Shown: one piece after another, positions 9,001-61,072 of the stretch
Numbering within the stretch: position 1 is the stretch's first letter
How the letters are laid out: every line of letters starts with the position of its first letter
Virus record (IMG/VR): IMGVR_UViG_3300023313_000005
Location: 1 to 64,000 of that record
Reading direction: 5' to 3' (one strand)
Source of the DNA: a virus
Length of the DNA stretch: 64,000 bases
Notes under the pieces: generated by a model
Seen by the model: the letters and a program-made list of their open reading frames with translations, nothing else
The model's database searches: none
Told to the model about the DNA's origin: nothing
Position numbers and translations under genes: made by a program

Positions 9001-12000
9001 TTTATATGAAGCATATTTAAATTTAGAAAGTCGCGAATATAATAGAGAGGGCATATCTAAAAATTTACCTGAGATTAATGATGATATGTTAAAGACGAAT
9101 TTAAATAAAGATATTAATAATTTAACAGAAAATGAGATATTAAATCAATTAGCTGTATTAGAACAATTTGAATACGCAATGTTCTTAGGGGAAAAATTAG
9201 CTGATTTTTCTAAATCAATAAAATTCGCAAAAGAGTTACCTGTATTTGTTAAAGATATTAAATCTAATTTAGAATTATGGAATACGGTTAAATCTAAATT
9301 TATAGTTAATACTGAAAATATAGAAAAGAGATTACCTCACTTATATGAAGGGGGTAATACATTAGCAATGTTAAATGATATAATCGCAGAAGTGTATGAT
9401 ATACATGGCGAAAATTCATATGCTTTTCTTAATCAATTAAAAGAGGTATTTAATATTAAAATTAAATATAATTCTTTTGAAAATACTGAAGAATTAAAAA
9501 AAGAATTGGTTAAATATATTATATCAGGTATTGACTTATTAGATGAAATATTTGAAACTCCTCCATCAAAAATAGGTGCTAAATCATATAATAATATTGC
9601 AACGTGGAATAGAGAATTAATTCAACAACTATTAGATGAATTTTCTAAATTACCAAATAATATATTAATTAATTATTTAAATATACGTAATAATAAAATT
9701 AGTTTTACAGGAGGTGGTGATTTAAATGCTTCCCAACTTGTTGATTTTGAAGATGCTTTTTTAGAATTATCTGAATCTTTGCAACAAAAACTTATAAAAT
9801 ATGAGCTATTAAATAATGGGACATTATTTGGTACCAGTAATTTAAGTAGTATTATCCCAGGTGATATATTACAAGAAGCCAATAATGAAATAATACGTCA
9901 ATTTAAAAAATTACTTCCTTCATTACAAACTAATATACTTGAAACAGAAGAAGGTAAAGTGATTAAATTAGAAAATACTAATAATCATTTAGATTTTTTA
10001 ATTCAGGTAGCTCTTAATAACTCTAAACAATTACCGTATGTTTCAGTAAAAGCGGAAAAAGAAACTAAATTTTTAGCGGGGGTTACTGAACAAGGACTTT
10101 ATTATGATCTTAAATTTTTAAATCCTCAAACCAAAAGCGGTTTTAAATATTCTAAATCAGCATTTCCCAAATTTATAAAAAGAACATATAATGAAACATC
10201 TGAGGTAGTTTATATGCGAGTTACAGATCCTTTAACACACGAAGTGTTATATCAAAAAATAGGATTTGGAAGAAAACACAAAATAAATATTCGTACCAAA
10301 AATGTAAATACTGTTGAAAAAAATGCAATAGAATCTGCTTTTTCAGGTGCTCCTTATTTTAAAATAAAGAGTCACGATAACACCACATTTAATTCAACTC
10401 ATGAATTATCTAAAAATGAAATTGTATATTTGTATGTTGATGATAACAGGTTAGATGCGGAAAGTTATGAAATTGTAAAAGCAGTTAAGCGATATGATAT
10501 GATGGATGAGTTTTTAGGGTATATGTATACTGTAAAAAAAGTAAAAAGTAATCCATCTAGTAAGACATCTAGAGTATTTAACTTAGAAAGTAAAAGAATA
10601 AATGTAGATATAGTCGAAAATATTAACGAAGGGGATCATCTTGAATTAAATGAATTGTACGAATTGGTTTATAATTCAGAAGATGCGGGTTTAATATCTA
10701 GACTTGATGCTTTGAAAGGGTTACTTCCTGAAGGAATTAAAATAAAAGTAGTAAAACAATCAGATATTAAGGGCGAGGCTTCAGCATTTGCAGGATTTTC
10801 TACAGAAGAAGGACACTTTATAGTATTTGGTGATAAGAGTATTAGTTCACATAGTATAGTTCATGAATTAACACATATAGCATTATATAATTTAATAGAT
10901 AATTATATTAAAGTTGATAAAAGATATATAACAGATAAGCAATATTCATTAATGAGTAAATTAGAAGATATATTTTATTCATTACGAAATCACCCCAATT
11001 TAAAAGGAGAATATGGTTTAACAAATTTACATGAATTTATTTCTGAAGTAATGTCTAATAGTGAATTTAGAGAAAAACTATCTAATATTAATCACTATGA
11101 AAATAATAATCGTATTTCTCTTTTAGACAAAATTCTTAATTTTATAAAACAATTATTAGGGTTTGATTCTAAAATATCTAATGAGAGTATAGTTTCAGAT
11201 TCTGTATTAATGGTAAGTGATAAAATATTACAAGAGGTAATAACATCATATAAGGGTAATATTAAATCTAATTCTTCTTTTACTGCTAATTTAGAGTCAA
11301 ATACAGAAGACGATTCTGTAGATAATAACATAAAAGAATTAATAGAAAAATTAAAAACTGATATTACTAATAGAGATAAAGACGCTACAGTAGGGATAGA
11401 GAATGGAGAAGAAGCCGATTATTACATTGTTAATGGCGAAAAGATACCTAGGGTTCACACGGTTGTTTCAGAGTTCTCTAACGCCTTTAAAAATAAGACC
11501 GGATCTATTGCAGAAAGGGCTGCTAATAAATATTGGATAGAGGGTATAGATCATGACACTAAATTAAATACTGATTTAGGAGAAATGACCTATGAAACTT
11601 ATGTAGAATATAAAGATAAAGAAATAAAGGATAATAAATTACGTGGTAAAATAAACCATAAAATATTAGAGACAGCCGGAATGAATGAGACGGAAACTAT
11701 GAAAGCTATGCAAGATATTAAAGATAAATTAGCTGAAATAGGGATGTCTATAATGCCTTTCCAATGGTTATTTAAAAATAAAGAAACTATATTAGAAAAA
11801 TATGGTATTAATATTAAAGACGACGTATTATTATCAGAAAAAACAATTTATTCTACGCTTTTAAATTTAGTAGGTACTCCTGATTTAGTATCCATAGATA
11901 AATTTGGTAGGTTAAGTATTACTGATTGGAAAACAGGAAGTGCATTTAATGTGGAATTTGTTAATACCATAATGAAATATGGTGATCAAGTTATAGATGT

Positions 12001-34991: not shown

Positions 34992-35228
34992 TTATAATGA
35001 ATTGAGTTCTTTCCATTTTCCCATAGACATAGACCCTTTATAACTATATTTTAATCCGTATCCACTTCCCCAATTAGTACCTTTTCCACTTCCCTCTCCA
35101 GACCCATTCCCTATTCCGCCTGTTGAACAACATCCACTACCATCCATATATCTATGTGTATAAAGATATTCTATATTATTCATATCTATAAGTATATTGT
35201 CTAATCTATCTATTGTAAAATCTATCAT
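34992..35228 (-). CDS. Array A peptide 18 (78 aa)
   Basis: MIDFTID...GxG repeats. Confidence 0.7.
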   Translation of the reverse strand: MIDFTIDRLDNILIDMNNIEYLYTHRYMDGSGCCSTGGIGNGSGEGSGKGTNWGSGYGLKYSYKGSMSMGKWKELNSL

Positions 35229-35236
35229 ATTATTTT

Positions 35237-35494
35237 TTAATAAATTGAACTATCTAAAATTAAAAATTCATTCCCAGTTCCAAGATCATGTCCCGTCCTT
35301 TCACTTTCACCATAATCTGCTATGTATAAATTTTCATGCTGAGTATTTACTAAACTACAATCTATCCATCCTCCGTATTTATTTCCTCCACCTGTTCCGT
35401 GTCCCATAGAATTAATTTTTGGTGCGGTAGAACTTAAAAATAATACCCCTCTAGGATAACATTCCCCATAATCATTAATATTATAATCTATCAT
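35237..35494 (-). CDS. Array A peptide 17 (85 aa)
   Basis: MIDYNINDYG...GNEFLIL. Confidence 0.7.
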   Translation of the reverse strand: MIDYNINDYGECYPRGVLFLSSTAPKINSMGHGTGGGNKYGGWIDCSLVNTQHENLYIADYGESERTGHDLGTGNEFLILDSSIY

Positions 35495-35745
35495 AATATA
35501 CTAATTTCTTCTCCTTTTCCGATATCATAATGATAAATATATTTATCATTATATGTACTTTCATATCCACATCCATATTTAGTTTCGTACGTGCATTGTA
35601 TATATCCTAACCCACACCCATTTCCATTTTTCTCTCCATACTCAGATGAATTTCCACTTCCGTGCCCATTTCCATATCTATAACCTTGTCCATTTCCTCT
35701 TCCCCCATGTCCCGTTCCTTTATTATTAAGTCTTGTATCTATCAT
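35491..35745 (-). CDS. Array A peptide 16 (84 aa)
   Basis: MIDTRLNNKG...EISIL. Confidence 0.75.
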   Translation of the reverse strand: MIDTRLNNKGTGHGGRGNGQGYRYGNGHGSGNSSEYGEKNGNGCGLGYIQCTYETKYGCGYESTYNDKYIYHYDIGKGEEISIL

Positions 35746-35939
35746 AATATATTTATATATTCATGTCCACATCCTTTTTCATCTATATATCCTATTCCAT
35801 ATCCACTTCCATATCCATCTTTTATTCCCTTTCCTAATCTATCTCCACCATCATCTCCCACTCCTTGTCCATATCCATACCCATTGGCATTCCCGAATTC
35901 ATACCAATTTCCATTATTATTAATATTATAATCTACCAT
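35742..35939 (-). CDS. Array A peptide 15 (65 aa)
   Basis: MVDYNINNNG...YINIL. Confidence 0.75.
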   Translation of the reverse strand: MVDYNINNNGNWYEFGNANGYGYGQGVGDDGGDRLGKGIKDGYGSGYGIGYIDEKGCGHEYINIL

Positions 35940-36238
35940 AATATATTGTTTATATATTCACATCCATCTCCATATCCACTTTCATGATTGTTTCCATATC
36001 CATTTCCGCACCCTTTTCTACAGCTATATCCATATCCATTTCCAAGTCCATCTCCATCTCCACATCCGTATCCTTTTCCATATCCTTTCCCATTTCCATA
36101 TCCATTTCCATTTCCATCTCCATCTCCAAGTCCATCTCCATCTCCATCTCCAAACCAATGCCTATATTTATTTCTATTACTATTTCCACATACTATTCTA
36201 TATCCTTTTTCATTAATATCAAGTGTTGCGTCAATCAT
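35933..36238 (-). CDS. Array A peptide 14 (101 aa)
   Basis: MIDATLDIN...INNILW. Confidence 0.75.
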   Translation of the reverse strand: MIDATLDINEKGYRIVCGNSNRNKYRHWFGDGDGDGLGDGDGNGNGYGNGKGYGKGYGCGDGDGLGNGYGYSCRKGCGNGYGNNHESGYGDGCEYINNILW

Positions 36239-36474
36239 AATATATCAATTTCATTTCCATTTCCGTTAATATATTTATTTATATAGTCATATACATAACC
36301 ATATCCGTATCCATATCCATTTTCATTATTATCATTATTTTCTTCTCCGTATCCTTCTCCGTAATCATCCCCATAACCGTCTCCATGTCCACCTCCATAT
36401 CCATGTCCTTTTTTATATCCAACATCATCAGAGAATATATAACATCCCCTATTATTATATTCTATATCTATCAT
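36235..36474 (-). CDS. Array A peptide 13 (79 aa)
   Basis: MIDIEYNNRG...EIDIL. Confidence 0.75.
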   Translation of the reverse strand: MIDIEYNNRGCYIFSDDVGYKKGHGYGGGHGDGYGDDYGEGYGEENNDNNENGYGYGYGYVYDYINKYINGNGNEIDIL

Positions 36475-36477
36475 AAT

Positions 36478-36711
36478 TTATAAAACAAAAGGTTCTTTCC
36501 ATTTCCCACGGTTATATCTATTCAATCCTATATTTTCACCATCTCCGACTCCTTGTCCATTACCTTTTCCACATTTATCTCCCCATCCACTACCTTCTCC
36601 ACGTCCATTACCTTGACCATATTTATTACCTACTCTTATATCATAATGCATTCCATTATCAATTAAATGTGATTTTTTATATCCATTATCATTATATTTT
36701 GTATCTATCAT
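36478..36711 (-). CDS. Array A peptide 12 (77 aa)
   Basis: MIDTKYNDNG...PFVL. Confidence 0.75.
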   Translation of the reverse strand: MIDTKYNDNGYKKSHLIDNGMHYDIRVGNKYGQGNGRGEGSGWGDKCGKGNGQGVGDGENIGLNRYNRGKWKEPFVL

Positions 36712-36848
36712 AATATATCATTTTCATACCCGTCCCCATACCCGGTTTCATTGTCATGTCCATCTTCACCACCATCTCCATGCCCATATTCATTTCCAAA
36801 CCCATTTTCATATTCTATTCTATTATTAGTAAATGCTGTATCTATCAT
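36708..36848 (-). CDS. Array A peptide 11 (46 aa, not in ORF track)
   Basis: Hand translation: MIDTAFTNNRIEYENGFGNEYGHGDGGEDGHDNETGYGDGYENDIL. Confidence 0.75.
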   Translation of the reverse strand: MIDTAFTNNRIEYENGFGNEYGHGDGGEDGHDNETGYGDGYENDIL

Positions 36849-37078
36849 AATGCGTTATTTTCATATCTTATTCCATAATTATTATATTTATAATTATATT
36901 CCTCTCCTCCACCATGTTTATTTCCATATCCATTCGCATGTCCTTTTCCATACCCATTTCCGTCTTCAAATCCATATCCACTTCCTTCTCTATATCCCCC
37001 TCCTTCTCCATTTCTATATCCTATTTCATGTCCTATTTTATGTCCTGTTCCAATATTATTAAAATTTACATCTATCAT
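36845..37078 (-). CDS. Array A peptide 10 (77 aa; start corrected from 37126)
   Basis: MIDVNFNNIG...ENNAL. Confidence 0.75.
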   Translation of the reverse strand: MIDVNFNNIGTGHKIGHEIGYRNGEGGGYREGSGYGFEDGNGYGKGHANGYGNKHGGGEEYNYKYNNYGIRYENNAL

Positions 37079-37338
37079 GATATAGTATTTACATATCCGT
37101 AACCATTTCCATCTCCATATCCGCATCCATCTATATATCCGTATCCATTTGCATATCCATATCCGTATCCTTTCCCATTTTCATATCCGTCCCCACATCC
37201 ATATCCATTAATATCCCCATCCCCATTTCCATATCCATATCCATATCCATATCCATGTTTACTCTCACATCCGTGTCCTTTTCCGTATCCGTATCCTATT
37301 CCACTATCATTATTATTATTAAATTTTACATCTATCAT
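37075..37338 (-). CDS. Array A peptide 9 (87 aa)
   Basis: MIDVKFNNNN...VNTIS. Confidence 0.75.
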   Translation of the reverse strand: MIDVKFNNNNDSGIGYGYGKGHGCESKHGYGYGYGYGNGDGDINGYGCGDGYENGKGYGYGYANGYGYIDGCGYGDGNGYGYVNTIS

Positions 37339-37514
37339 AATACATCGTTTATATCCTCATTTCTATCGTTTCCGTATCCATCTCCACATCCATTCCCGTA
37401 TCCATCCCCATATCCATATCCATATCCACTTCCATTTCTATCTCCTTGCCCATATTCGTATCCTCTTCCATATCCATATTCTATTCCGATATTACTAAAA
37501 TTTGTATCTATCAT
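37335..37514 (-). CDS. Array A peptide 8 (59 aa, not in ORF track)
   Basis: Hand translation: MIDTNFSNIGIEYGYGRGYEYGQGDRNGSGYGYGYGDGYGNGCGDGYGNDRNEDINDVL. Confidence 0.75.
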   Translation of the reverse strand: MIDTNFSNIGIEYGYGRGYEYGQGDRNGSGYGYGYGDGYGNGCGDGYGNDRNEDINDVL

Positions 37515-37729
37515 AATATACGAATTTCTATTCCTATTCCATTTCTATTTTCATGATTATATTCTTCTCCAAACATAAATCTTTTTCCAAATCCTTTTTT
37601 GAGTTCACTATCATACCATTTTGTATTTTCACTCCATTTTCCAAGTCTAGTACTATATCCTGTTCCAGATTCCTCCCCTAATCTTTCTAAATAACTAAAT
37701 CCCTTATTGTTAAAAGTTCTATCTATCAT
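37511..37729 (-). CDS. Array A peptide 7 (72 aa)
   Basis: MIDRTFNNKG...EIRIL. Confidence 0.75.
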   Translation of the reverse strand: MIDRTFNNKGFSYLERLGEESGTGYSTRLGKWSENTKWYDSELKKGFGKRFMFGEEYNHENRNGIGIEIRIL

Positions 37730-37896
37730 AGTATAGTATAATTATTTCCATTCCCTTCTCCATATTCATTACCATGTCCTCCACCATGTCCGTGACCATA
37801 CCCATTTCCATAATTATCTCCACATGACAATCCATATTTTATTTCAAATGTTATTCCATATCCATTTCCATCAGTATTGATATTCATATCTATCAT
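37726..37896 (-). CDS. Array A peptide 6 (56 aa, not in ORF track)
   Basis: Hand translation: MIDMNINTDGNGYGITFEIKYGLSCGDNYGNGYGHGHGGGHGNEYGEGNGNNYTIL. Confidence 0.75.
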   Translation of the reverse strand: MIDMNINTDGNGYGITFEIKYGLSCGDNYGNGYGHGHGGGHGNEYGEGNGNNYTIL

Positions 37897-38105
37897 AATA
37901 TATCATTTATTTTTTCATAACTATGTCCATATCTATATCCATTTCCTTTACCATATCCATTCCCATTTCCACATCCATTTTTATAATCGTCCCCATTTCT
38001 ACTTCCGGATCCATATCCATATCCTCTTCCGTCTCCATAGCCATTTCCAAATCCAGATCCGTATCCATATCCAACACCATTAATATTAAGTTTTGTATTT
38101 ATCAT
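37893..38105 (-). CDS. Array A peptide 5 (70 aa)
   Basis: MINTKLNING...INDIL. Confidence 0.75.
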   Translation of the reverse strand: MINTKLNINGVGYGYGSGFGNGYGDGRGYGYGSGSRNGDDYKNGCGNGNGYGKGNGYRYGHSYEKINDIL

Positions 38106-38118
38106 AGTACATAAATTT

Positions 38119-38397
38119 TTATTCTATATATATATCATCTCCTATACCATATCCATCTCCCGCACCATTCTTATATCCTTTCCCATTTCCATATATATTT
38201 CCTTTTCCATTTCCACATCCATTCCCGTCTCCACATCCATTTTTATCTCCATATCCACATCCATTTCCAAACCCATTCCCGTACCCTATTCCATTTTCAG
38301 ACTCGCTTCCATATCCATATCCTAATTTACTTCCATACCCATACCCTTCTCCATATTCGTATTCTATTCCGGTATTGTTAAAATATGTATCTATCAT
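38119..38397 (-). CDS. Array A peptide 4 (92 aa)
   Basis: MIDTYFNNTGIEY... Confidence 0.75.
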   Translation of the reverse strand: MIDTYFNNTGIEYEYGEGYGYGSKLGYGYGSESENGIGYGNGFGNGCGYGDKNGCGDGNGCGNGKGNIYGNGKGYKNGAGDGYGIGDDIYIE

Positions 38398-38594
38398 AAT
38401 ATATTATTTTTATCTCCATATCCATAACCATGTCCATTTCCATTTCCATTTCCATATTTCTTTCCGTATTCATATGTATTTCCATACCCATATGCATTTC
38501 CTTTTCCATAATTATATCCAGTATTAGAACTATATCCATCTCCAAATCCATTTCTATATTCTATTCCAGTATTATTAAAACTTGTGTCTATCAT
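38394..38594 (-). CDS. Array A peptide 3 (66 aa)
   Basis: MIDTSFNNTGIEY...KNNIL. Confidence 0.75.
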   Translation of the reverse strand: MIDTSFNNTGIEYRNGFGDGYSSNTGYNYGKGNAYGYGNTYEYGKKYGNGNGNGHGYGYGDKNNIL

Positions 38595-38818
38595 AGTATA
38601 TCATTTATACATCCATATCCACTTCCATCCTCATATCCATTTCCATCCCCACATCCTTCTCCGTATCCATTTCCGTTTCCGTATTCATTGCCATATCCAT
38701 TTCCATCCCCATTTTCATTTCCACATCCATTTCCGTACCCATATCCGTATCCTATTCCATTTTCATATCCATATTCATCTTCACCATATCCATTAATATT
38801 AAGTTTTGTATCTATCAT
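38591..38818 (-). CDS. Array A peptide 2 (75 aa)
   Basis: MIDTKLNING...INDIL. Confidence 0.75.
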   Translation of the reverse strand: MIDTKLNINGYGEDEYGYENGIGYGYGYGNGCGNENGDGNGYGNEYGNGNGYGEGCGDGNGYEDGSGYGCINDIL

Positions 38819-39012
38819 AATATATTTTCATTTCCGCGTCCATACCCATATCCGTATCCATCTCCATTTCCTTGTCCATGTCCATGTCCATATCCCCCAT
38901 ATCCATTTCCGTGTCCCCTTCCATCTCCATTTCCATGTCTATTCCCAGATCCATATTGACTATCATAACTGATTTTATGATGTCCTGTACTATTAAAATA
39001 TATATCTATCAT
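38815..39012 (-). CDS. Array A peptide 1 (65 aa)
   Basis: MIDIYFNSTG...NENIL. Confidence 0.75.
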   Translation of the reverse strand: MIDIYFNSTGHHKISYDSQYGSGNRHGNGDGRGHGNGYGGYGHGHGQGNGDGYGYGYGRGNENIL

Positions 39013-39025
39013 AACTCATAAAATT

Positions 39026-39052
39026 AAAAGGGGAGATATTACTCTCCCCTTT
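39026..39052 (-). terminator. Terminator-like hairpin at the head of array A
   Basis: AAAGGGGAGA/TCTCCCCTTT stem followed by a T-run on the minus strand. Confidence 0.7.
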
Positions 39053-39505: not shown

Positions 39506-39772
39506 TTAATCAATTGAGTTCATCATTTTTTTAGTTACAGGATTATATTCCTGTTGTACTATTTTTATTACACATGGGGTATCTTCACTTGTTTTTACAG
39601 TAAAGTGATGACCATGCTCCACAATAACAGCCCCATTAGGTTCCAGAACTACTGTACCCATTTTTTCAAACTTCTTAATTACTTTTACATCAGTAGATTT
39701 CTTTAAATCCACATAATGTTCTCCATTACTGTGCTCCAGAATCAATTTCTGATTTTCTTGTTCTGTATTCAT
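39506..39772 (-). CDS. Small HxxH protein, copy A
   Basis: EHGHH and QQEYNPVTK; paralog of 45504-45770. Confidence 0.75.
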   Translation of the reverse strand: MNTEQENQKLILEHSNGEHYVDLKKSTDVKVIKKFEKMGTVVLEPNGAVIVEHGHHFTVKTSEDTPCVIKIVQQEYNPVTKKMMNSID

Positions 39773-39788: not shown

Positions 39789-40550
39789 TCAAGATTGAGC
39801 GGTTAATAATTCAAAATATGATTTTTTAGACATATGTATAGGATCTTCATTAGGTAAAGGTACTATTTTCTTATCCATTTCAAATAAGAATACATCTCCT
39901 TGACGTATAATACTTTTAATATGACCTTCCATAGATGGATAATACATACATAAACTAGCAACTGCTTCTAAAGGAGATCCATTTTTAAAATGTTCAGGTA
40001 CCCATAACCAATGTTCGTCATTAGTACTAGTACAATGACATCTAATTACAGGTACTATAGGATCTTCTACTGCATCAGGATCTTGTAATTTTGTAATATC
40101 CACATGCCATAGTTCATACATTACATGATAATCTATTTCCTCCATCTTATCTAATGTTTCATTATATACCCTATTGATAAGATGTTCTCCTTCAGTTTTT
40201 ATTCTTTCTGAAGGTAAATTATCCATCATCTCTCTAATAGAAATAACTCCAAATAAAGCAGCTCTATAGTTGCTATTTTTAATGCTAAATGCCTCTTGAT
40301 AGGTATATTTATCAAAAGCATCCCAATAAGCCATTAATCCCTCTATATAAGCGGCTTCTTCAAATTCCCCATAAGTACAAATATCTTCAATCATAGGATC
40401 AAAGAATCTGGATTTAGCCCGTTTAAAATTATCATTGTACTTTGTTTTTAAAAATCTTATGATTGTAGGATCTTTTAAGGTAGCATTATTCACCTGAAAA
40501 GTTTTACTCTCTGAGTAGTACGTAATACCTTCAATTGGTAATGTTTTCAT
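39789..40550 (-). CDS. DUF6745-like protein, copy A
   Basis: YEL, CHCTST..EHWLWV, A.AS, RQGDVF, YF.LLTAQS; paralog of 45736-46554. Confidence 0.7.
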   Translation of the reverse strand: MKTLPIEGITYYSESKTFQVNNATLKDPTIIRFLKTKYNDNFKRAKSRFFDPMIEDICTYGEFEEAAYIEGLMAYWDAFDKYTYQEAFSIKNSNYRAALFGVISIREMMDNLPSERIKTEGEHLINRVYNETLDKMEEIDYHVMYELWHVDITKLQDPDAVEDPIVPVIRCHCTSTNDEHWLWVPEHFKNGSPLEAVASLCMYYPSMEGHIKSIIRQGDVFLFEMDKKIVPLPNEDPIHMSKKSYFELLTAQS

Positions 40551-41665: not shown

Positions 41666-41842
41666 TTAATATTTTAAATCTTCTGTAATTATATCTATAA
41701 CTACCATTAATAATACTATAAATAATACTACCCGAATCCGAAACAATGTATCTAAATCTGTTATATTTATATCATTTTTGAGGAATATTACAAGAATTAG
41801 AGAAATTCCTACTACTGATAGGTATTTGATTAGTTTTTTCAT
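41666..41842 (-). CDS. Small two-TM membrane protein, tandem paralog 2 (58 aa, not in ORF track)
   Basis: MKKLIKYLSVVGISLILVIFLKNDINITDLDTLFRIRVVLFIVLLMVVIDIITEDLKY. Confidence 0.65.
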   Translation of the reverse strand: MKKLIKYLSVVGISLILVIFLKNDINITDLDTLFRIRVVLFIVLLMVVIDIITEDLKY

Positions 41843-41846
41843 CTTA

Positions 41847-42020
41847 TTAATCTATATCTTTTGTTATTACAGCTGTGAGGATTATAAATAGCGCTGTAAA
41901 TGCTATCATTGCAAATCTATCAAAAGGAGATGATTCCATTATATTAGTGTCACCTTTGATGAATATTATAAGAAGTAAGGTAAGCCCTACTACTGATAGG
42001 TATTTGATTAGCTTTCTCAT
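41847..42020 (-). CDS. Small two-TM membrane protein, tandem paralog 1 (57 aa, not in ORF track)
   Basis: MRKLIKYLSVVGLTLLLIIFIKGDTNIMESSPFDRFAMIAFTALFIILTAVITKDID. Confidence 0.65.
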   Translation of the reverse strand: MRKLIKYLSVVGLTLLLIIFIKGDTNIMESSPFDRFAMIAFTALFIILTAVITKDID

Positions 42021-42994: not shown

Positions 42995-43512
42995 GATGAT
43001 TTTTCAATTAATTCCTTATGGAATTCTGCAAACTTTTTTGCTCTTTTTTTTGTTGGGAAAGCAAGGAATGATATTTTATCGCGTGTTTCTAGAATCTCAT
43101 AACTTGGCTCCCCACAAATAGGTAGTATTATAGATTTAGCTGTTTTATCGTACCATTCTAAATTCTTTTCTTCTTCCCAATTTGGACTCCAATCTCCATT
43201 ATAATCAGCTACCAATTGGGATAGCATGGCTTTGGCAATACTAGCTTCTGCTTGCTTTCTTGTTTTGAATATATTACCATCATTATCAGTTCTGCGTGGA
43301 ATACCTATTGGATAAATATTACTAAAAGCATCTATCCAATACCCTCCTACTTTTTCTAACTCTTCCCGAGTCTTTAATTTCCCTTCTTGTGGCTCTTCCT
43401 TGAGTGTCTTTAACACCCTCTCCAATTCTGGAATATCTTTTTTTGAAACTGTGATTTTGACTGTGTCGGTATTCAATTCTGTTACTTTCATGTTATTTGT
43501 TTTTGATTGCAT
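42985..43512 (-). CDS. Hypothetical protein
   Basis: 175 aa; FKT..QAEA, N.DW.PNW, F.T...A..F motifs. Confidence 0.7.
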   Translation of the reverse strand: MQSKTNNMKVTELNTDTVKITVSKKDIPELERVLKTLKEEPQEGKLKTREELEKVGGYWIDAFSNIYPIGIPRRTDNDGNIFKTRKQAEASIAKAMLSQLVADYNGDWSPNWEEEKNLEWYDKTAKSIILPICGEPSYEILETRDKISFLAFPTKKRAKKFAEFHKELIEKSSWI

Positions 43513-44080
43513 TTTCTAAATGTAAAAAGTACGCTTTATATGCTTTGTACATTGCTTCTATTCTGATAAATTCTTCTGTACCTCTTTTTGTTTCAAATTC
43601 GTCATCACCCTTAAACCATTCATCCCATTGTTCAATAGTTTTGCATTCACATCCAATTTTTATTTTATTATTCACTATACCAAAACTCCATTTTGAGTAA
43701 ATAGGCATAATTGCATTACTTATATCTGCTCTACGAAGGTTTACCCCGTCAAAGTTTACTCCACGAAGGTCTGATTCACGAAGGTCTGCTTCATCGAGGA
43801 TTGATTCACAAAGGTTTGCTCCACGAAGGTCTGCTCTGTAAAGGTTTGCTCCACGAAAATCTACTCTACGAAGGTTGGTTTCATAAAGATTTGCTCCACG
43901 AAGGTTAGCTTCATAAAAGTTGGCTTCAAAAAGGTTGGCTCCACAAAAATTTGCTTCAAAAAGATTGGCCCCATGAAAGTCTGCCCCACGGAGGTCAGCT
44001 CTACGCAAGTAGGCTCCTATTAATGTATCGCCTTCAATTTCTTTTAATACTTTTCCGTTAAAATCTTTAATTTGTATCAT
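43493..44080 (-). CDS. Pentapeptide repeat protein
   Basis: About 20 A(D/N)(L/F)xx repeats; C-terminal IKIGC....I..W domain. Confidence 0.9.
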   Translation of the reverse strand: MIQIKDFNGKVLKEIEGDTLIGAYLRRADLRGADFHGANLFEANFCGANLFEANFYEANLRGANLYETNLRRVDFRGANLYRADLRGANLCESILDEADLRESDLRGVNFDGVNLRRADISNAIMPIYSKWSFGIVNNKIKIGCECKTIEQWDEWFKGDDEFETKRGTEEFIRIEAMYKAYKAYFLHLENAIKNK

Positions 44081-44135: not shown

Positions 44136-44288
44136 TTACAATTCATAACTTAATATATGTTTATATTTAATATGAGTATAAGGCGTAAACATTGAATTAA
44201 ATTTATTTGCAATCATTATAGTAAATTTTAAATTTGGATAATCAAGTCTAGTACGTGCTTTACAATCTTTGAGTATTACCAGTTTCAT
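44136..44288 (-). CDS. Array B peptide 9 (50 aa)
   Basis: MKLVILKDCKARTRLDYPNLKFTIMIANKFNSMFTPYTHIKYKHILSYEL. Confidence 0.7.
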   Translation of the reverse strand: MKLVILKDCKARTRLDYPNLKFTIMIANKFNSMFTPYTHIKYKHILSYEL

Positions 44289-44434
44289 AGTTTATAAGTT
44301 TTTTTAGATTCGTATATAATATGACTATAGGGTAAATATACTGAATAATATCTAGTAGATATTATTATATTGTATGGTTCATTATAATAACTAATACTTT
44401 TTGCTTTACAATTTTTAAGTATAATTAATTTCAT
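44285..44434 (-). CDS. Array B peptide 8 (49 aa)
   Basis: MKLIILKNCKAKSISYYNEPYNIIISTRYYSVYLPYSHIIYESKKTYKL. Confidence 0.7.
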   Translation of the reverse strand: MKLIILKNCKAKSISYYNEPYNIIISTRYYSVYLPYSHIIYESKKTYKL

Positions 44435-44583
44435 AGCTCATAAAAATTTTTAGATTTGTATCTAATACGACTATAAGGTAAATATAATGAATGATATGCA
44501 TCAGATATTATTATATCATATGGCATAAAATATTGACTGAGTGTATTTATTGTTTTACAATCTCTAAATATTATTAACTTCAT
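44431..44583 (-). CDS. Array B peptide 7 (50 aa)
   Basis: MKLIIFRDCKTINTLSQYFMPYDIIISDAYHSLYLPYSRIRYKSKNFYEL. Confidence 0.7.
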   Translation of the reverse strand: MKLIIFRDCKTINTLSQYFMPYDIIISDAYHSLYLPYSRIRYKSKNFYEL

Positions 44584-44723
44584 GGCCAATAAAAGGTTAT
44601 ACTTTTATAATATATCTTAAAATAAGGAGTATAAAATATCTTATATCTAAAATCTATATAAAGGTTAGAATCATCTGGTTTATTAGTATGAAATTCACAA
44701 TTTTTAATTACAATTAGTCTCAT
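44580..44723 (-). CDS. Array B peptide 6 (47 aa)
   Basis: MRLIVIKNCEFHTNKPDDSNLYIDFRYKIFYTPYFKIYYKSITFYWP. Confidence 0.7.
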   Translation of the reverse strand: MRLIVIKNCEFHTNKPDDSNLYIDFRYKIFYTPYFKIYYKSITFYWP

Positions 44724-44860
44724 AAGTAATAAGTAGTTATAGTTTTAAATTTAATTTTATAGCGAGAAAAACAAAATATATTATTTTGTAATACTATAGG
44801 GTAAGTTACGTATTTAAGTTCATTAGCTAGTTTACAGTCTTTAAGTGTTATTAGTTTCAT
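44720..44860 (-). CDS. Array B peptide 5 (46 aa)
   Basis: MKLITLKDCKLANELKYVTYPIVLQNNIFCFSRYKIKFKTITTYYL. Confidence 0.7.
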   Translation of the reverse strand: MKLITLKDCKLANELKYVTYPIVLQNNIFCFSRYKIKFKTITTYYL

Positions 44861-45003
44861 ACCATATGAATTTTCATTTTTTCACCTTTTATACAAAAAT
44901 TAAAAGTGTATAATGTTATAAATTGATAATCTAAAAGTACACTATAAAATATAGATGAATGATAATCATGTATTACACAATTTTTTATTATTATTAATCT
45001 CAT
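44857..45003 (-). CDS. Array B peptide 4 (48 aa)
   Basis: MRLIIIKNCVIHDYHSSIFYSVLLDYQFITLYTFNFCIKGEKMKIHMV. Confidence 0.7.
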   Translation of the reverse strand: MRLIIIKNCVIHDYHSSIFYSVLLDYQFITLYTFNFCIKGEKMKIHMV

Positions 45004-45155
45004 AATTGATACATTTTACAATTTCCAAATTTTACATTTTTAATACTTATTAATGCATATGAAGTAGTAGATACATGATATTTATAGCATATAAGATCTA
45101 CAAAAGGTAAATATTGAGTAAAATCTTCATTTATAGGAATTACTATTAAATTCAT
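45000..45155 (-). CDS. Array B peptide 3 (51 aa)
   Basis: MNLIVIPINEDFTQYLPFVDLICYKYHVSTTSYALISIKNVKFGNCKMYQL. Confidence 0.65.
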   Translation of the reverse strand: MNLIVIPINEDFTQYLPFVDLICYKYHVSTTSYALISIKNVKFGNCKMYQL

Positions 45156-45301
45156 AACTCATATTTGTTAGAATAACTATACATAATACAAATATCACTT
45201 AGGTATAAAAGATAATTATTACTACATAGATCTGAATTTAATACAATATTTGAAATAGAAGAAGTAATATCGGCATATTTATTTAATAGTACTAAAGTCA
45301 T
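45152..45301 (-). CDS. Array B peptide 2 (49 aa)
   Basis: MTLVLLNKYADITSSISNIVLNSDLCSNNYLLYLSDICIMYSYSNKYEL. Confidence 0.7.
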   Translation of the reverse strand: MTLVLLNKYADITSSISNIVLNSDLCSNNYLLYLSDICIMYSYSNKYEL

Positions 45302-45447
45302 AATTCATATCTATTAGAATATTTATATGTAATGCAAATATTACCTATATATAAAAGATAAATATCACTATATAGATCTGAAATTAACCTATCGTTTGAT
45401 GAAAGCATAAAAATATCATCATATTTATTTAATATTACTAAAGTCAT
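45298..45447 (-). CDS. Array B peptide 1 (49 aa; start corrected from 45507)
   Basis: MTLVILNKYDDIFMLSSNDRLISDLYSDIYLLYIGNICITYKYSNRYEL. Confidence 0.7.
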   Translation of the reverse strand: MTLVILNKYDDIFMLSSNDRLISDLYSDIYLLYIGNICITYKYSNRYEL

Positions 45448-45465: not shown

Positions 45466-45496
45466 AAAAAGGTGCAGAGAATTTCCCCACACCTTT
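45466..45496 (-). terminator. Terminator-like hairpin at the head of array B
   Basis: Minus strand AAAGGTGTGGGGA-aat-TCTCTGCACCTTT (with G-U pairs) followed by a T-run. Confidence 0.6.
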
Positions 45497-45503
45497 AACC
45501 CTA

Positions 45504-45770
45504 TCAATCAAATGCATCCTGTAACATTTTAGTTACAGGGTTCAGCTCTTGTTGAGTATATTTAATGATGTTTTCACTTTCTGTTTTTAATGTCCCATGC
45601 TCGCCATGGGTTACTATTCCGTTACTACCTGTTTTGATGAGAAGAGCACCTTTATACTCCTCACTAACAATGTCCCCTTTTACCTCTAAAGTATGAGGAT
45701 GGGTAGACTTTTGAATTATTAATTTTTCCATTATATTAAGATTGTGCTGTGAGTAATCCAAAATACTCAT
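45504..45770 (-). CDS. Small HxxH protein, copy B (start may be the internal MEKLII)
   Basis: THPH, THGEH, QQELNPVTK; paralog of 39506-39772. Confidence 0.75.
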   Translation of the reverse strand: MSILDYSQHNLNIMEKLIIQKSTHPHTLEVKGDIVSEEYKGALLIKTGSNGIVTHGEHGTLKTESENIIKYTQQELNPVTKMLQDAFD

Positions 45771-46554
45771 CAGCTGTTAAACTTCTTTTTTTGGGGTTGT
45801 AAGATATTAAATCTTTTAGTTCTTCAATATCTTTATCATATTCTGTGATAAAAACATCTCCTTGACGTTTTATCTCTTTGATGTAAGGAATAACTGATTC
45901 ATGAAAGACTGCCGTAGATGCTATGGCTGTTAAAGCACTATTGTCTTCAGGTTTATTTACCCAAAGATAATGCTCTTCATTAGTAGTGGTACACCAGCAC
46001 TTAACTACATATAGTTTATTAGTACTAAATTTAGTTCCATCAACTTCTAGTAATTCATAAACTACATGGTAATCTTTCATACCGGTAAAATTACCTTCAT
46101 AATCGAATGTTTTATGAGTTACTTCCTTACCTCCTACATCTATAGTAGTATAACCCATACCCTCTATCAATTCTTTTACATCCAACAATTCAAATACTAA
46201 AATTTGAAAGGCATTATTTTTGATTTCGAATGCCTCTTTAAATGTTATAGGAGGAATATCCTCCCACATATCTAATAGTATCTCTACTTTAGACACACAA
46301 CTTTTAAAAATGTTAGCACCTTCTATTTCTTCTCCTTCGGCTATTTTCTTGTCAATTTTTTCAGGGAGCTCTCGGAATTTGTTTATAATAGTATTTTCAA
46401 ATTCTTTCTTAGTTCCCTTCAACTTATAATATTGGATAAGTTCTTTTTTTGTAATACCTATCCAAATATCAGTTGTTGCCTCGTATTTTAATTCTGATGT
46501 TACCTCTATGATATGGAGGTTTTTTAACTTACGAAGTTTATTTTCATCTTTCAT
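45736..46554 (-). CDS. DUF6745-like protein, copy B
   Basis: YEL, CWCTTT..EHYLWV, AIAS, RQGDVF, YF.LLTAQS. Confidence 0.7.
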   Translation of the reverse strand: MKDENKLRKLKNLHIIEVTSELKYEATTDIWIGITKKELIQYYKLKGTKKEFENTIINKFRELPEKIDKKIAEGEEIEGANIFKSCVSKVEILLDMWEDIPPITFKEAFEIKNNAFQILVFELLDVKELIEGMGYTTIDVGGKEVTHKTFDYEGNFTGMKDYHVVYELLEVDGTKFSTNKLYVVKCWCTTTNEEHYLWVNKPEDNSALTAIASTAVFHESVIPYIKEIKRQGDVFITEYDKDIEELKDLISYNPKKRSLTADEYFGLLTAQS

Positions 46555-47625: not shown

Positions 47626-47650
47626 AAAAAGGGGGAGTAATTCCCCCTTT
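47626..47650 (-). terminator. Terminator-like hairpin immediately upstream of the tRNA
   Basis: AAAGGGGGA-gtaat-TCCCCCTTT. Confidence 0.6.
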
Positions 47651-57329: not shown

Positions 57330-57867
57330 GTTTGATACCAACTCTAACTTTTGGAAGATGAATCCCCAGTTTAAAATACTGGAGCCGTTTAAATCTTTAT
57401 ATATCAAAGATAAAACTGCGGGGAAGAAATACACTTCTAAAGTAATGTGGGCGGTAGCTTTTTTATTAGACCCTTCTAAGGATAACATTTACAGAAATGT
57501 CCCTACAGATGAACGTAAAGAACTCATCTGTAGGGATTTTTTAGGTTATTCTGTATCTAAATTCGATAAGTACCAAAATATAATGGATTTTTATAAAAAA
57601 CAAGTTTTATCTCAAGCTGCTAAAAGTTTATTAGTATGGGAGGACATTATGACAGATAGAGAAAAGACATTAAAAGGTATGTATAAAGAAGCATTAAAAA
57701 ATAAAGATATTGATTTAATAGTCGAATTGGATAAATTATTAGCTACTACTCCTAAATATTATATGGATTATGATAAAATAAAAAAGACATTTTTAGAAGA
57801 AGAAGAATCCAATAATAGGGGTAAAGGGAATAGAGTCAAATCATTAACAGATACAGGTGAGATCTAA
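57313..57867 (+). CDS. Hypothetical protein, possible small terminase subunit
   Basis: NFW..NP, D.T..K..TSK.MWA motifs; overlaps the terL start. Confidence 0.55.
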   Translation: MSVINKFDTNSNFWKMNPQFKILEPFKSLYIKDKTAGKKYTSKVMWAVAFLLDPSKDNIYRNVPTDERKELICRDFLGYSVSKFDKYQNIMDFYKKQVLSQAAKSLLVWEDIMTDREKTLKGMYKEALKNKDIDLIVELDKLLATTPKYYMDYDKIKKTFLEEEESNNRGKGNRVKSLTDTGEI

Positions 57868-60800
57868 ACACATACCTAATTCAAAATTTATTGTAGGGGA
57901 TATACCTGAGTTTAATCCTGTTTCCCAATACTATGAACGACTTACCTGGTGGAAAGAACAGAAACGTAGGTGCATAGAAGGATATTGGGTAGATGGTAAA
58001 TGGTGCCCTGGTGTTTTATATTTTTATATAAATTTTTGGAATATAGAAGTAGAGGCAAGAGAAGGATCATTAGGTAAGGTAATTGGGACTCCGTGGTTTA
58101 GAGATTTAGAGTGGGACAAAGGGTATGTTATGGTAGAAGCAAGAGGGTTTTCCGGATTTACTAATGATGATGAATATACTTGTAACATTGCAGTATTAAA
58201 AAAAGAAGAATTACATAACGACGGATTATTAGATTTATATATAAAAAACGGATATGTTCGTAAGCAGGATTTAAGTAAAGAATATGTTCCCGCACGAGAA
58301 TATTTACGAAAAATACATAAAGGTAATTTAGGGAAACCACTATTCCAAAATGAGGCATGTAATGTAGTAGATTTGGAATCTCGCGGAGGAGGTAAAGATT
58401 TAAAATCAACAGAAGTAGTTTATACAGAAACAGGCAAACTACCCATTTCTAAAATCAAAGTAGGTGATCGTATTTTTGGCGCAGATGGTAAATTGACAAC
58501 AATAACTTCTCGTAAAGATTTTTATGATCAGCAACAGTACAGGGTAGTATTCTCTGATGGGAGAAGTATAGAATGTGGAGGAGGGCATTTATGGACAGTG
58601 TATAGTAGAAGTAAGCACGGATACAAGAAAAAAGTATTATCTCTTGATGACATAAGAAAAGATTATAAAATTGGTACACGGGGTGATAGTAGATATTTTG
58701 TACAATTATGCCAACCATTAGAATATTCTGAAAAAGAATTACCAATAGATCCTTATTATTTAGGATTATGGTTAGGTGATGGTAATTCAAATAATACATG
58801 TATAACTTCTGCCGACGAAGAAATAAAGGATAGTATTAAAAAATATGCTGAAGAGTTAGGTATGCGTATGAGCATTAGTTACCCTAACGAAACTGCTTCT
58901 GTTTATAGAATATGTGAATTAAAAAATGGTGTTGAAAATAAACTTATTACAAAATTAAAACAACTAAATGTTTTATATAATAAGCACATCCCTGATATAT
59001 ACTTACATAGTTCCAAAGAACAACGTCTAGAATTATTAAGAGGGCTTATGGATAGCGACGGATATGCGGATGAAAGACATATTGAATTAACTACTAGCTA
59101 TAAAGGCTTACAAAAAACAATTCCCGAACTAATTCATTCATTAGGAATTAGAACAAAAATACGCATCAAAAAGACTACGCATAAAAATAGTCTTAGAATA
59201 TCATTGTTAACAGATTTACGGATATTTAAACTTACCAGAAAACTTAAATTTGTAGGGAAAAATAGATCTAAATTTGCTATTACAAATAGAACAATGAGCG
59301 CTATACGTGAAATTATTCCAACAACCGTGCATCATTCTGTATGTATAAGTGTGGATAATACTGATTCTTTATTTGTAGCGGGCGAAGGTTGTATTGTAAC
59401 ACATAATTCTTTTTGGGGAGGTGGTAATATAGGTCATAATTTCTTATTCGATGGTGCTATTGATTATGATGTATACTTGTCTAAAAAAATGACAGATAAG
59501 CCTTTAACTACACAAACATTAGTAGGTGCTATAGATTCGTCTTTTTCTAAAGATTTGCTTGCTAAATTTAAATTAGGAATGAAGCATTTACCTGGAGCTA
59601 TAGAATATAATAATGAAACATATCCTTCCCCATTATCTATAGATTATACAGGATCATTAATGCCGGGTAAATTCTTAGTATCTACTGCTACTGGTAGTAA
59701 AATACATCATAGATCATTTAAAGATAATCCTTTAGCCGCAAACGGTACCAGGCCATCATTATCATATTTAGAGGAGGTCGGGTTCATGGATAATATAGAA
59801 GAATCGTTAGGGGCAATGAAAGAATGTGTTGCATCTGGAGAAAGACAATTCGGAAGTATTTACATGTTTGGTACAGGAGGTCTATTTAAAGGGATGGCAT
59901 CAATGCATATGAGTAATATATTTTATAATCCTTCCGATTATAATTGTTTGGAATTTGATGATGAATGGGAAGGGCGTGGTAAAATTGGTTATTTTATACC
60001 TGCGTATAGAACACTTAATGGATTTAAAGAAACTGAAGATTATATAACGAATGATGAAAAGGCATTAAATTTTTTATTAAAAGAACGTAAATCAGTATTA
60101 AAAAATAAAATTAAATATGCATCGGAAGTAATTAATAGACCTATAAAACCTTCTGAAATATTCTTTTCTACAGAAGGTACTTTCTTCCCATTAACTGAAC
60201 TTAAACAGAGTCAGGAGAACTTACTAAAAAATGATAAATTATTAAACGCATCATGGAAAGGATTTGTTGTAATATCAGAAGATGATACATTAATATGGAA
60301 AAATACGGATGATATGCCTATAACACAATGGCCCTATAAAGCAGGTAAAATGGGGGAAGGCTGTATAGAAATATTTGAAATGCCTGTAAAAAATGTAGAA
60401 AATGAGGTAGTAAATAATATATATATTGCAGGATGTGACCCGGTTGACGATGATGGCTTTGAAGGGTCATTACAATCATCATTTATTATGAATAGGCTTA
60501 CGGGTAGAATAGTTGCTGAATACACAGCACGTCATGAAAGGGCAGACCAATATTATGAGAATTTAAGAAAATTACTTTTATTTTTTAACGCAAAGTGTAA
60601 TTATGAAAATAACAAAAAGGGTTTATTTCAGTATTTTCATAATATGAATTGTTCATATCTATTATCAGAAACCCCTAAATTATTAAGGGATCAAGGCATG
60701 GTTAGAACAGTAAGCATTGGTAACAAGTCGTATGGTACACCTGCTAATCAATATGTTAATAGATGGGCTAGAGATTTAATAAAGAAATGGTTATTAGAAC

Positions 60801-61072
60801 CTGCTATTAACAAAGATAACAACATAAATGCCGATACTATACGTTCTATTGCATTAATAGAAGAATTAATAAGATGGACAGATAAGGGTAATTTTGATAG
60901 GGTATCAGCATTGGGGATGTTAATGATATTAAAAGAAGAAAAATATAAAAACGCAGTAAGTTTAGAAACCACACATCAATCAATATTTAATAGATGGTCA
61001 GGTAGATTAAAGAAGAAAGGTATCGGTTATAAAAAAGCTATTACGAAACAAAATTTTTTACAGAATAATTAA
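57857..61072 (+). CDS. terL: Terminase large subunit, intein-containing
   Basis: WW.EQ.RRC.EG, YFY.NF, Walker A RGGGK^S split by the intein, Walker B YLEEVG, GTGG, AGCDPVDDD nuclease motif, YENN, NFDRVSA. Confidence 0.93.
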   Translation: MRSKHIPNSKFIVGDIPEFNPVSQYYERLTWWKEQKRRCIEGYWVDGKWCPGVLYFYINFWNIEVEAREGSLGKVIGTPWFRDLEWDKGYVMVEARGFSGFTNDDEYTCNIAVLKKEELHNDGLLDLYIKNGYVRKQDLSKEYVPAREYLRKIHKGNLGKPLFQNEACNVVDLESRGGGKDLKSTEVVYTETGKLPISKIKVGDRIFGADGKLTTITSRKDFYDQQQYRVVFSDGRSIECGGGHLWTVYSRSKHGYKKKVLSLDDIRKDYKIGTRGDSRYFVQLCQPLEYSEKELPIDPYYLGLWLGDGNSNNTCITSADEEIKDSIKKYAEELGMRMSISYPNETASVYRICELKNGVENKLITKLKQLNVLYNKHIPDIYLHSSKEQRLELLRGLMDSDGYADERHIELTTSYKGLQKTIPELIHSLGIRTKIRIKKTTHKNSLRISLLTDLRIFKLTRKLKFVGKNRSKFAITNRTMSAIREIIPTTVHHSVCISVDNTDSLFVAGEGCIVTHNSFWGGGNIGHNFLFDGAIDYDVYLSKKMTDKPLTTQTLVGAIDSSFSKDLLAKFKLGMKHLPGAIEYNNETYPSPLSIDYTGSLMPGKFLVSTATGSKIHHRSFKDNPLAANGTRPSLSYLEEVGFMDNIEESLGAMKECVASGERQFGSIYMFGTGGLFKGMASMHMSNIFYNPSDYNCLEFDDEWEGRGKIGYFIPAYRTLNGFKETEDYITNDEKALNFLLKERKSVLKNKIKYASEVINRPIKPSEIFFSTEGTFFPLTELKQSQENLLKNDKLLNASWKGFVVISEDDTLIWKNTDDMPITQWPYKAGKMGEGCIEIFEMPVKNVENEVVNNIYIAGCDPVDDDGFEGSLQSSFIMNRLTGRIVAEYTARHERADQYYENLRKLLLFFNAKCNYENNKKGLFQYFHNMNCSYLLSETPKLLRDQGMVRTVSIGNKSYGTPANQYVNRWARDLIKKWLLEPAINKDNNINADTIRSIALIEELIRWTDKGNFDRVSALGMLMILKEEKYKNAVSLETTHQSIFNRWSGRLKKKGIGYKKAITKQNFLQNN
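58397..59407 (+). mobile_element. Class 3 intein (337 aa) with a LAGLIDADG homing endonuclease
   Basis: Begins DLK after GGGK and ends VTHN before Ser+1; HLW, VCI and THN give the WCT triad; LGLWLGDG and LRGLMDSDG. Confidence 0.9.

Follow-up and report, generated by a model that had tools for sequence, protein, structure and literature searches.

Many crAss-like phage genomes hold blocks of short genes without outside homologues, and anti-CRISPR proteins have been suspected within these blocks, but the predictor applied to them found none (Yutin et al., 2021; PMC7886860). Such blocks of short ORFan genes are the closest published kind to the locus described here, an array of nine very small genes (array B) at positions 44136–45447 of IMG/VR virus record IMGVR_UViG_3300023313_000005, a viral contig of 75.5 kb of which we analyzed the first 64 kb (the window). 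Array B likewise lies in a crAss-like phage and is a run of short genes that lack homologues outside their lineage. It differs from the published blocks in being a tandem array in which six of the nine genes are demonstrable paralogues, lengths are uniform, and an ATGA overlap occurs at every junction, and in its positional link to a conserved pair of genes that is itself duplicated; none of these features is described in PMC7886860. We find that the genes of array B have been selected to stay open and to keep the termini of their products, and that this genome has two copies of the layout in which an array accompanies the gene pair, a layout also seen in other phages, where the mini-proteins belong to unrelated families. 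The reading that we favor, to which we assign a probability of about 40%, is that array B is the variable half of a two-part module whose constant core is the pair, which encodes proteins of 272 and 88 amino acids (aa).

Gene accordions of the poxvirus type offer a second comparison: in these, the gene for a host antagonist is amplified in tandem and the copies then diverge. Array B shares with them its tandem copies, the presence of recent duplicates beside old and diverged ones, and a near-neutral or diversifying mode of change. The poxvirus-type expansions, however, are transient and involve one known antagonist, whereas array B comprises nine long-diverged genes that have been kept.

Nine coupled genes kept open by selection

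Array B consists of nine minus-strand open reading frames (ORFs) of 46–51 aa that tile 44136–45447 without gaps, and which we numbered B1–B9 in transcription order. All nine start with ATG, all eight junctions are ATGA overlaps (so that the internal stops are TGA and each gene lies one base out of frame relative to the preceding one), and the final stop is TAA. The G+C (GC) content of the array is 0.205 (about 80% A+T), the regional minimum in a window that ranges from 0.20 to 0.38. An earlier note, made from the sequence alone, had reported nine uninterrupted ORFs joined in this way, six with the head M(K/R)L..(K/R)(N/D)C and seven with the tail YxL, and every part of that description was reproduced. 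It had also called the ORFs hidden, which holds for an ORF track limited to 60 aa or more; the gene caller of the source database, however, already had at least eight of the nine.

Several observations show that these frames are maintained. Each unit has no stop in its coding frame, compared with 1–11 in each of the five other frames, and at 80% A+T about one random codon in ten is expected to be a stop. Nine ORFs of at least 45 aa were observed in the 1.3 kb, compared with a maximum of four in 5000 first-order Markov shuffles, which bears out the earlier judgment that such an arrangement is unlikely by chance. Because the copies share ancestry, we also simulated neutral drift at this composition: frames remained intact in about 10% of cases after 18 substitutions, in 1.4% after 36, and in at most 0.2% after 60–75. 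The actual divergence amounts to 24% of bases in the pairs B1/B2 and B7/B8 and to about half of all bases in most other pairs. Moreover, B1 and B2 are separated by a +1/−1 pair of indels, twelve bases apart, that restores the frame.

Conserved residues of the products are specified by synonymous codons: Leu3 is encoded by TTA, CTA, or CTG, Leu6 by TTA, CTT, or CTC, and the terminal Leu by TTA, CTA, or TTG, and the conserved Lys and Glu residues likewise vary in their codons. Selection has therefore acted on protein, and not merely on a DNA repeat. Part of the terminal conservation has a simpler origin, since the ATGA overlap dictates that codon 2 starts with A (giving K, R, N, or T) and that the last codon ends in A; the restricted choice of residue 2 is thus a by-product of the overlap. 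The terminal Leu is not, because B9 retains it (as TTG) although nothing overlaps its end. The earlier note had proposed conservation of the reading frames in related genomes as a check; there is no relative in any collection searched, a result that speaks neither for nor against the frames, and the evidence for selection consequently rests on comparison among the paralogues. We regard it as very likely that the ORFs of array B are genuine genes whose protein products are under selection, that these products are small β proteins, and that the genes, having arisen by tandem duplication, are expressed together as a single coupled unit. The possibility that the array is instead a single long gene read by serial −1 frameshifting was ruled out, as there is no slippery heptamer at the junctions. 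A scan for σ70 promoters gave no enrichment, and tRNA was the sole match in an Rfam search.

The first two genes, B1 (45298–45447; 49 aa, head MTLVILNKYDD, tail YEL) and B2 (45152–45301; 49 aa), are recent duplicates, as the earlier note had recognized, with 63% identity in protein and 76% in DNA. They are followed by the singleton B3 (45000–45155; 51 aa, head MNLIVIP, tail YQL), which is open over its 51 codons with ATGA at both ends, and then by B4 (44857–45003; 48 aa, head MRLIIIKNC, tail HMV), B5 (44720–44860; 46 aa, head MKLITLKDC, tail YYL), and B6 (44580–44723; 47 aa, head MRLIVIKNC, tail YWP). A second pair of recent duplicates, with 57% protein and 76% DNA identity, is formed by B7 (44431–44583; 50 aa from its ATG, head MKLIIFRDC, tail YEL) and B8 (44285–44434; 49 aa), and the array ends with B9 (44136–44288; 50 aa).

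Leave-one-out hidden Markov models (HMMs) identified B4–B9 as one family, with E values from 7e-5 to 5e-15 (B4, 4e-5; B5, 7e-5; B6, 2e-6; B7, 5e-15) against a best background of about 0.03–0.3. B1 and B2 were recovered only via each other, and B3 was not recognized by the profile of the other eight (E 16). What these three genes have in common with the rest is their length, a hydrophobic head, and the YxL tail. The proposal that all nine form one family thus stands for B4–B9, with B1/B2 as a separate pair and B3 on its own, and the Cys that had been described as conserved is present in six of the nine proteins and missing from three.

The nine proteins are diversified, as had been proposed: pairwise identities range from 15% to 63%, sequence entropy is lowest in residues 1–9 and the last three residues, and it is highest in residues 10–24. 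The ratio of nonsynonymous to synonymous substitution (dN/dS) is 0.68 for B1/B2 and 0.86 for B7/B8, older pairs being saturated, and because of these values in the recent pairs the latest change in array B appears to be nearly neutral or diversifying. Neighboring genes are 35% identical and distant members 26% (r −0.29, p 0.057), a weak sign of local tandem duplication. The composition is extreme, with Ile, Tyr, Leu, and Lys together accounting for 46% of residues and Gly for only 0.7%.

The array B proteins are unique to this phage. They had no match in Pfam (at E up to 1), PHROGs, PADLOC, or PDB sequences, and none outside their own contig either in an index of 5.8 billion proteins or, by exhaustive HMMER search, among 1.84 billion cluster representatives. 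The latter search found no fused or longer form of the unit at any length; its sole long matches, P0009 and P0010, were rejected as translated tandem satellites. Nothing was found when the array B profile was compared with five related viral records or when B8 was compared with metagenome contigs, and the ESM Atlas returned only subthreshold rows for B9.

An AlphaFold model of B9, built from the nine-sequence alignment, is an all-β fold of six strands with a predicted local distance difference test (pLDDT) score of 86.8 and a predicted template modeling (pTM) score of 0.62; confidence peaks over the ten residues at either end, and only two of the five models were confident. The suggestion of small β-rich proteins is thus fairly well supported, and the earlier note as a whole was right in its observation and partly right in its interpretation, the β-rich and diversified character holding up and the single nine-member family not. 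Searches with the B9 model found nothing above noise, either with Foldseek against PDB and BFVD or with VIA-align against 48,161 chains: the best match had a Z of 3.0 and a root-mean-square deviation of 5.8 over 39 aligned residues, and many of the weak matches, all at noise level, were single propeller blades. We also considered a signal peptide or lipoprotein, which was ruled out by a hydrophobic head of only six residues and a Cys at position 9.

A gene pair with arrays in this and other phages

Upstream of array B on the same strand lie two genes that we refer to as the pair. The larger (45736–46554) encodes the 272-aa "hub" protein, which has an invariant C-terminal module CxC..EH..RQGD..YFxL; in 11 homologues, residues R230, Q231, and G232 are invariant and D233 is nearly so, so that a motif of the RQGD(V/I) type is present. 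The smaller (45504–45770) encodes its 88-aa partner, a His-motif protein (STxxH ... HGEHGT ... QQExNP) with invariant H26 and H58 and the QQExNP motif, which is conserved in 30 viral loci. A minus-strand hairpin of 13 bp with a U-rich run (ΔG −17.2 kcal/mol, z −2.6) separates the pair from array B at 45468–45496, 20 nucleotides (nt) before the start of B1, and is predicted to be terminator- or attenuator-like.

Both genes of the pair have a paralogue in the window. The 272-aa protein is 35% identical (E 5e-34) to a 253-aa protein encoded at 39789–40550, and the 88-aa partner is 35% identical (E 9e-12) to the product of 39506–39772. This second pair lies 6 kb from that of array B and is followed by a DUF6948 gene, a hairpin (39027–39052), and another array, array A, which is unrelated to array B. 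In both copies, therefore, a strong hairpin with a U-rich tail follows the pair and an array begins 20–25 nt further on. A scan of the 64 kb for tight runs of small ORFs returned arrays A and B plus two runs between them, of three and five mostly unrelated genes. Array A (34992–39012, minus strand) contains about 18 mini-genes for Gly/Tyr/Asn-rich proteins of 46–101 aa, with mostly ATGA junctions, MID.. heads, and ..IL tails, and it accounts for a GC skew of −0.7 at 35–39 kb.

We then considered 45 viral loci that carry the large or the small gene, 24 of which remained after dereplication, and scored as an array any set of at least three small paralogues (phmmer E <1e-4) within about 7 kb. Seven of the 24 had such an array; the others had none, or had larger paralogues with a common MI(K/R)LKxLLxE head. 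G001, whose portal is 61% identical, has a 189-aa gene after the pair and, beyond it, at least seven ORFs of 45–58 aa, several of them with 4-nt overlaps. The large gene of L024 precedes a terminator-like hairpin and eight ATGA-coupled MORN-like genes (54–81 aa), all of which end in F-Y/F/V-L, and in L054, L055, L056, and L061, MORN_2-like mini-genes lie 40–125 nt from the small partner.

The MORN_2 arrays of L024, L054, L055, and L061 resemble array B in their position relative to the pair, in gene length (54–82 aa), in their stop/start overlaps (ATGA or 11 nt), in their conserved heads, and in their aromatic-x-hydrophobic tails. They differ in that array B has no sequence or profile similarity to them, contains 0.7% Gly, and lacks a MORN motif; array B had no Pfam match to MORN_2 (PF07661), and its hhalign comparison with the profile of the pair-adjacent MORN-like proteins gave a probability of 0.1%. 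The mini-genes of L054, L055, and L056 (for example, L055 7290–9951) have 11-nt overlaps, ..YYAR tails, and MQDK heads, and the 11-nt overlap constitutes a second fixed type of junction in arrays next to the pair. L062 carries, at 4538–5857 and 1.1 kb from the pair, five small Gly/Tyr-rich paralogues (head MNIKISKGEGSGYG) that resemble array A of the window in composition, although the contig is unrelated. A "DYELY" similarity linking the mini-proteins of G001 to the DUF6745 protein of that contig was not significant.

Among the loci with larger proteins, those downstream of the pair in L021 (7682–12562), L026 (7052–8724), L040 (1197–5077), and L052 (2283–4747) all start with MI(K/R)LKxLLxE; they are 150–670 aa long and some are SGNH-hydrolase-like. 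This head ends in L-x-E and presumably recalls the capsid-targeting sequences of T4 that are cut by the prohead protease.

The hub protein has 89 metagenomic relatives, which are unnamed and have no Pfam domains except for a 396-aa protein of G001 that carries DUF6745 (PF20530, E 3.5e-8). Because the homology between the hub and this protein extends over the last 85 residues only, which lie outside the Pfam match, "DUF6745-like" is merely a transitive label. There is a weak structural lead from the hub to a DUF6745 cluster (template modeling score 0.39), and the model of the 272-aa protein matched nothing above noise in PDB, BFVD, or the 48,161 chains. Searches with its sequence against metagenome contigs and GenBank phages found nothing, as did a search of viral contigs with its closest relative, P0059, and neither DUF6745 nor DUF6948 was mentioned in the literature searched.

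Genome and neighborhood of array B

The contig encodes a DNA polymerase, a primase, a ribonucleotide reductase, GroEL, a large terminase, and a portal protein, the last of which is 39% identical over 79% of its length (E 2e-136) to those of Bacteroides phage crAss001 and its relatives. Because of this portal similarity and gene content, the phage is, as judged from its sequence, a distant member of the crAss-like assemblage. The sole public run that contains the contig is a microbial mat metagenome, its probable source. One ORF of at least 4934 aa (2–14806, plus strand) extends past the start of the window and presumably encodes the giant virion RNA polymerase or a cargo-type protein of crAss-like phages. 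The large terminase gene (57857–61072, plus strand; 1071 aa) has a match to phrog_6681, and the break of its PHROG match into two stretches suggests an insertion, either an intein or an added domain.

Three minus-strand hairpins, at 47628–47650, 45468–45496, and 39027–39052, share an AAAGG(G/U)G...C(C/A)CCUUU core and a U/A-rich run; the first lies upstream of tRNA-Leu and the other two precede arrays B and A. This set is probably the standard intrinsic terminator of the phage. No terminator-like fold was found 3′ of array B; transcription probably continues into the gene directly downstream (43493–44080, minus strand), which encodes another β-repeat protein, of the pentapeptide-repeat family (PF00805, E 4e-33). 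Between the two modules, at 41666–42020 on the minus strand, lie adjacent genes for paralogues of 57–58 aa (MRKLIKYLSVVGL.. and MKKLIKYLSVVGI..) with a hydrophobic segment. No helix-turn-helix gene was identified beside array B, and its neighbors belong to no Pfam or PHROG enzyme family.

A proposed core with variable partners, and the alternatives

In the reading that we favor, array B would be an operon of nine translationally coupled genes for all-β mini-proteins of about 50 residues, which would have grown by local tandem duplication and evolved fast in the protein interior while keeping an N-terminal strand (M-K/R-L-I-I-L-K-D/N-C) and a C-terminal strand (Y-x-L). Coupling would proceed through termination and reinitiation, and the pair and the mini-proteins would be made from one transcript by read-through of the hairpin. 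The mini-proteins may then act as alternative small partners that physically bind the pair, the conserved terminal strands providing a common fold or docking edge and residues 10–24 a surface that differs from one to the next. The phage would thereby obtain several related complexes that differ in their surfaces, most likely for use against a host target that varies, such as one of defense or takeover. Because the pair is duplicated together with arrays here and unrelated arrays recur beside it elsewhere, we lean, short of proof, toward the view that the array B proteins work with the upstream pair.

Several results weigh against this reading. The terminator-like hairpin that lies between them might just as well indicate separate expression of pair and array, and a dN/dS near 1 would also be expected of weakly constrained genes. 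No clear internal repeat was found in the B proteins (best offset z 2.05). Seventeen of the 24 dereplicated pair loci have no family of at least three small paralogues within about 7 kb, and in L024 and L047 the mini-genes are dispersed over more than 10 kb, so that their adjacency is perhaps merely positional and counts as weak evidence. Profile comparisons detected no relationship between array B and the arrays of G001, L049, and L024, and neither hub copy of the window matched Pfam DUF6745 at E up to 10.

A bolder form of the reading, which we hold to be doubtful, is that the pair is a core able to accept any one of many small, separately encoded β-proteins, and that the arrays carried by phages of this lineage are hard-wired libraries in which the recognition subunits are exchangeable; on this view array B, array A, and the MORN-like arrays would be independent solutions.

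The main rival, which we consider a serious though somewhat unlikely account, is that array B is a fast-evolving accessory block, that is, a set of independent small host-takeover or anti-defense proteins amplified in tandem as a gene accordion, which lies beside the pair only because that site is in a variable part of the genome. The published crAss-like blocks of short genes without outside homologues, with their suspected anti-CRISPR content (PMC7886860), provide a precedent, and the 35–51 kb region of the window is packed with small ORFan genes, which share one strand. The dN/dS of 0.7–0.9 in the recent duplicates, the tendency of adjacent genes to be more alike, and the lack of arrays at most pair loci are also as this account would have them. 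It does not readily explain why the two copies of the pair each have a separate array immediately beyond a similar hairpin, or why, in other contigs, mini-proteins of at least four unrelated families are encoded in arrays no more than about 100 nt from the pair, and array B had no match in any of the defense-related or phage family libraries searched (PADLOC, PHROGs).

The lesser rivals fare worse. It is very unlikely that the nine products are subunits of one β structure, such as the blades of a ring, supplied in equal amounts by coupling and joined by pairing of the conserved first and last strands between neighbors. Perfect ATGA coupling, a uniform length (46–51 aa) close to that of one four-stranded blade, conserved termini with variable interiors, and the many weak structural matches to propeller blades would all suit such a hetero-oligomer, but none of the structural matches exceeds a Z of 3.0, and recent duplicates at both ends and a variable copy make-up are ill-suited to a fixed stoichiometric machine.

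A decaying or selfish tandem DNA repeat, with open frames that have no protein function, is similarly improbable. The GC minimum, a dN/dS close to 1, and the absence of homologues in the collections searched are what such a repeat would show. Against it, nine frames are open at about 50% DNA divergence, where neutral drift closes 98–99.9% of them; conserved residues lie over synonymous changes, the indel pair of B1/B2 restores the frame, and a confident fold is predicted.

We give least credence to the idea that the ORFs are precursors of ribosomally synthesized and post-translationally modified peptides, with an N-terminal recognition sequence and processing by the pair or by an amidoligase/glutamine amidotransferase (ATP-grasp) cluster that lies in the same genome 12 kb away, because, although the tandem short genes with conserved heads and variable bodies, the metal-ligand-like invariant Cys and His of the pair, and the presence of that cluster would fit, a compact β domain and not disorder is predicted, the C terminus is conserved as strongly as the N terminus, no known modifying-enzyme family is adjacent, and no core motif is conserved.

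No part of the genomes of crAss-like and other Bacteroidota phages is less well understood than their blocks of short ORFan genes, and array B shows unusually clean signs of selection together with a predicted fold. The recurring context of pair, hairpin, and array makes it possible to frame a testable hypothesis for these small ORFans, in which a core has interchangeable partners. If the pair does serve as a core for exchangeable recognition subunits, a binding surface would be diversified by gene number and not by mutagenesis. If the link between pair and array is true, it would define a phage system that is widespread and as yet unpublished; if not, array B would still illustrate, in compact form, the making and diversification of new mini-proteins by phages.

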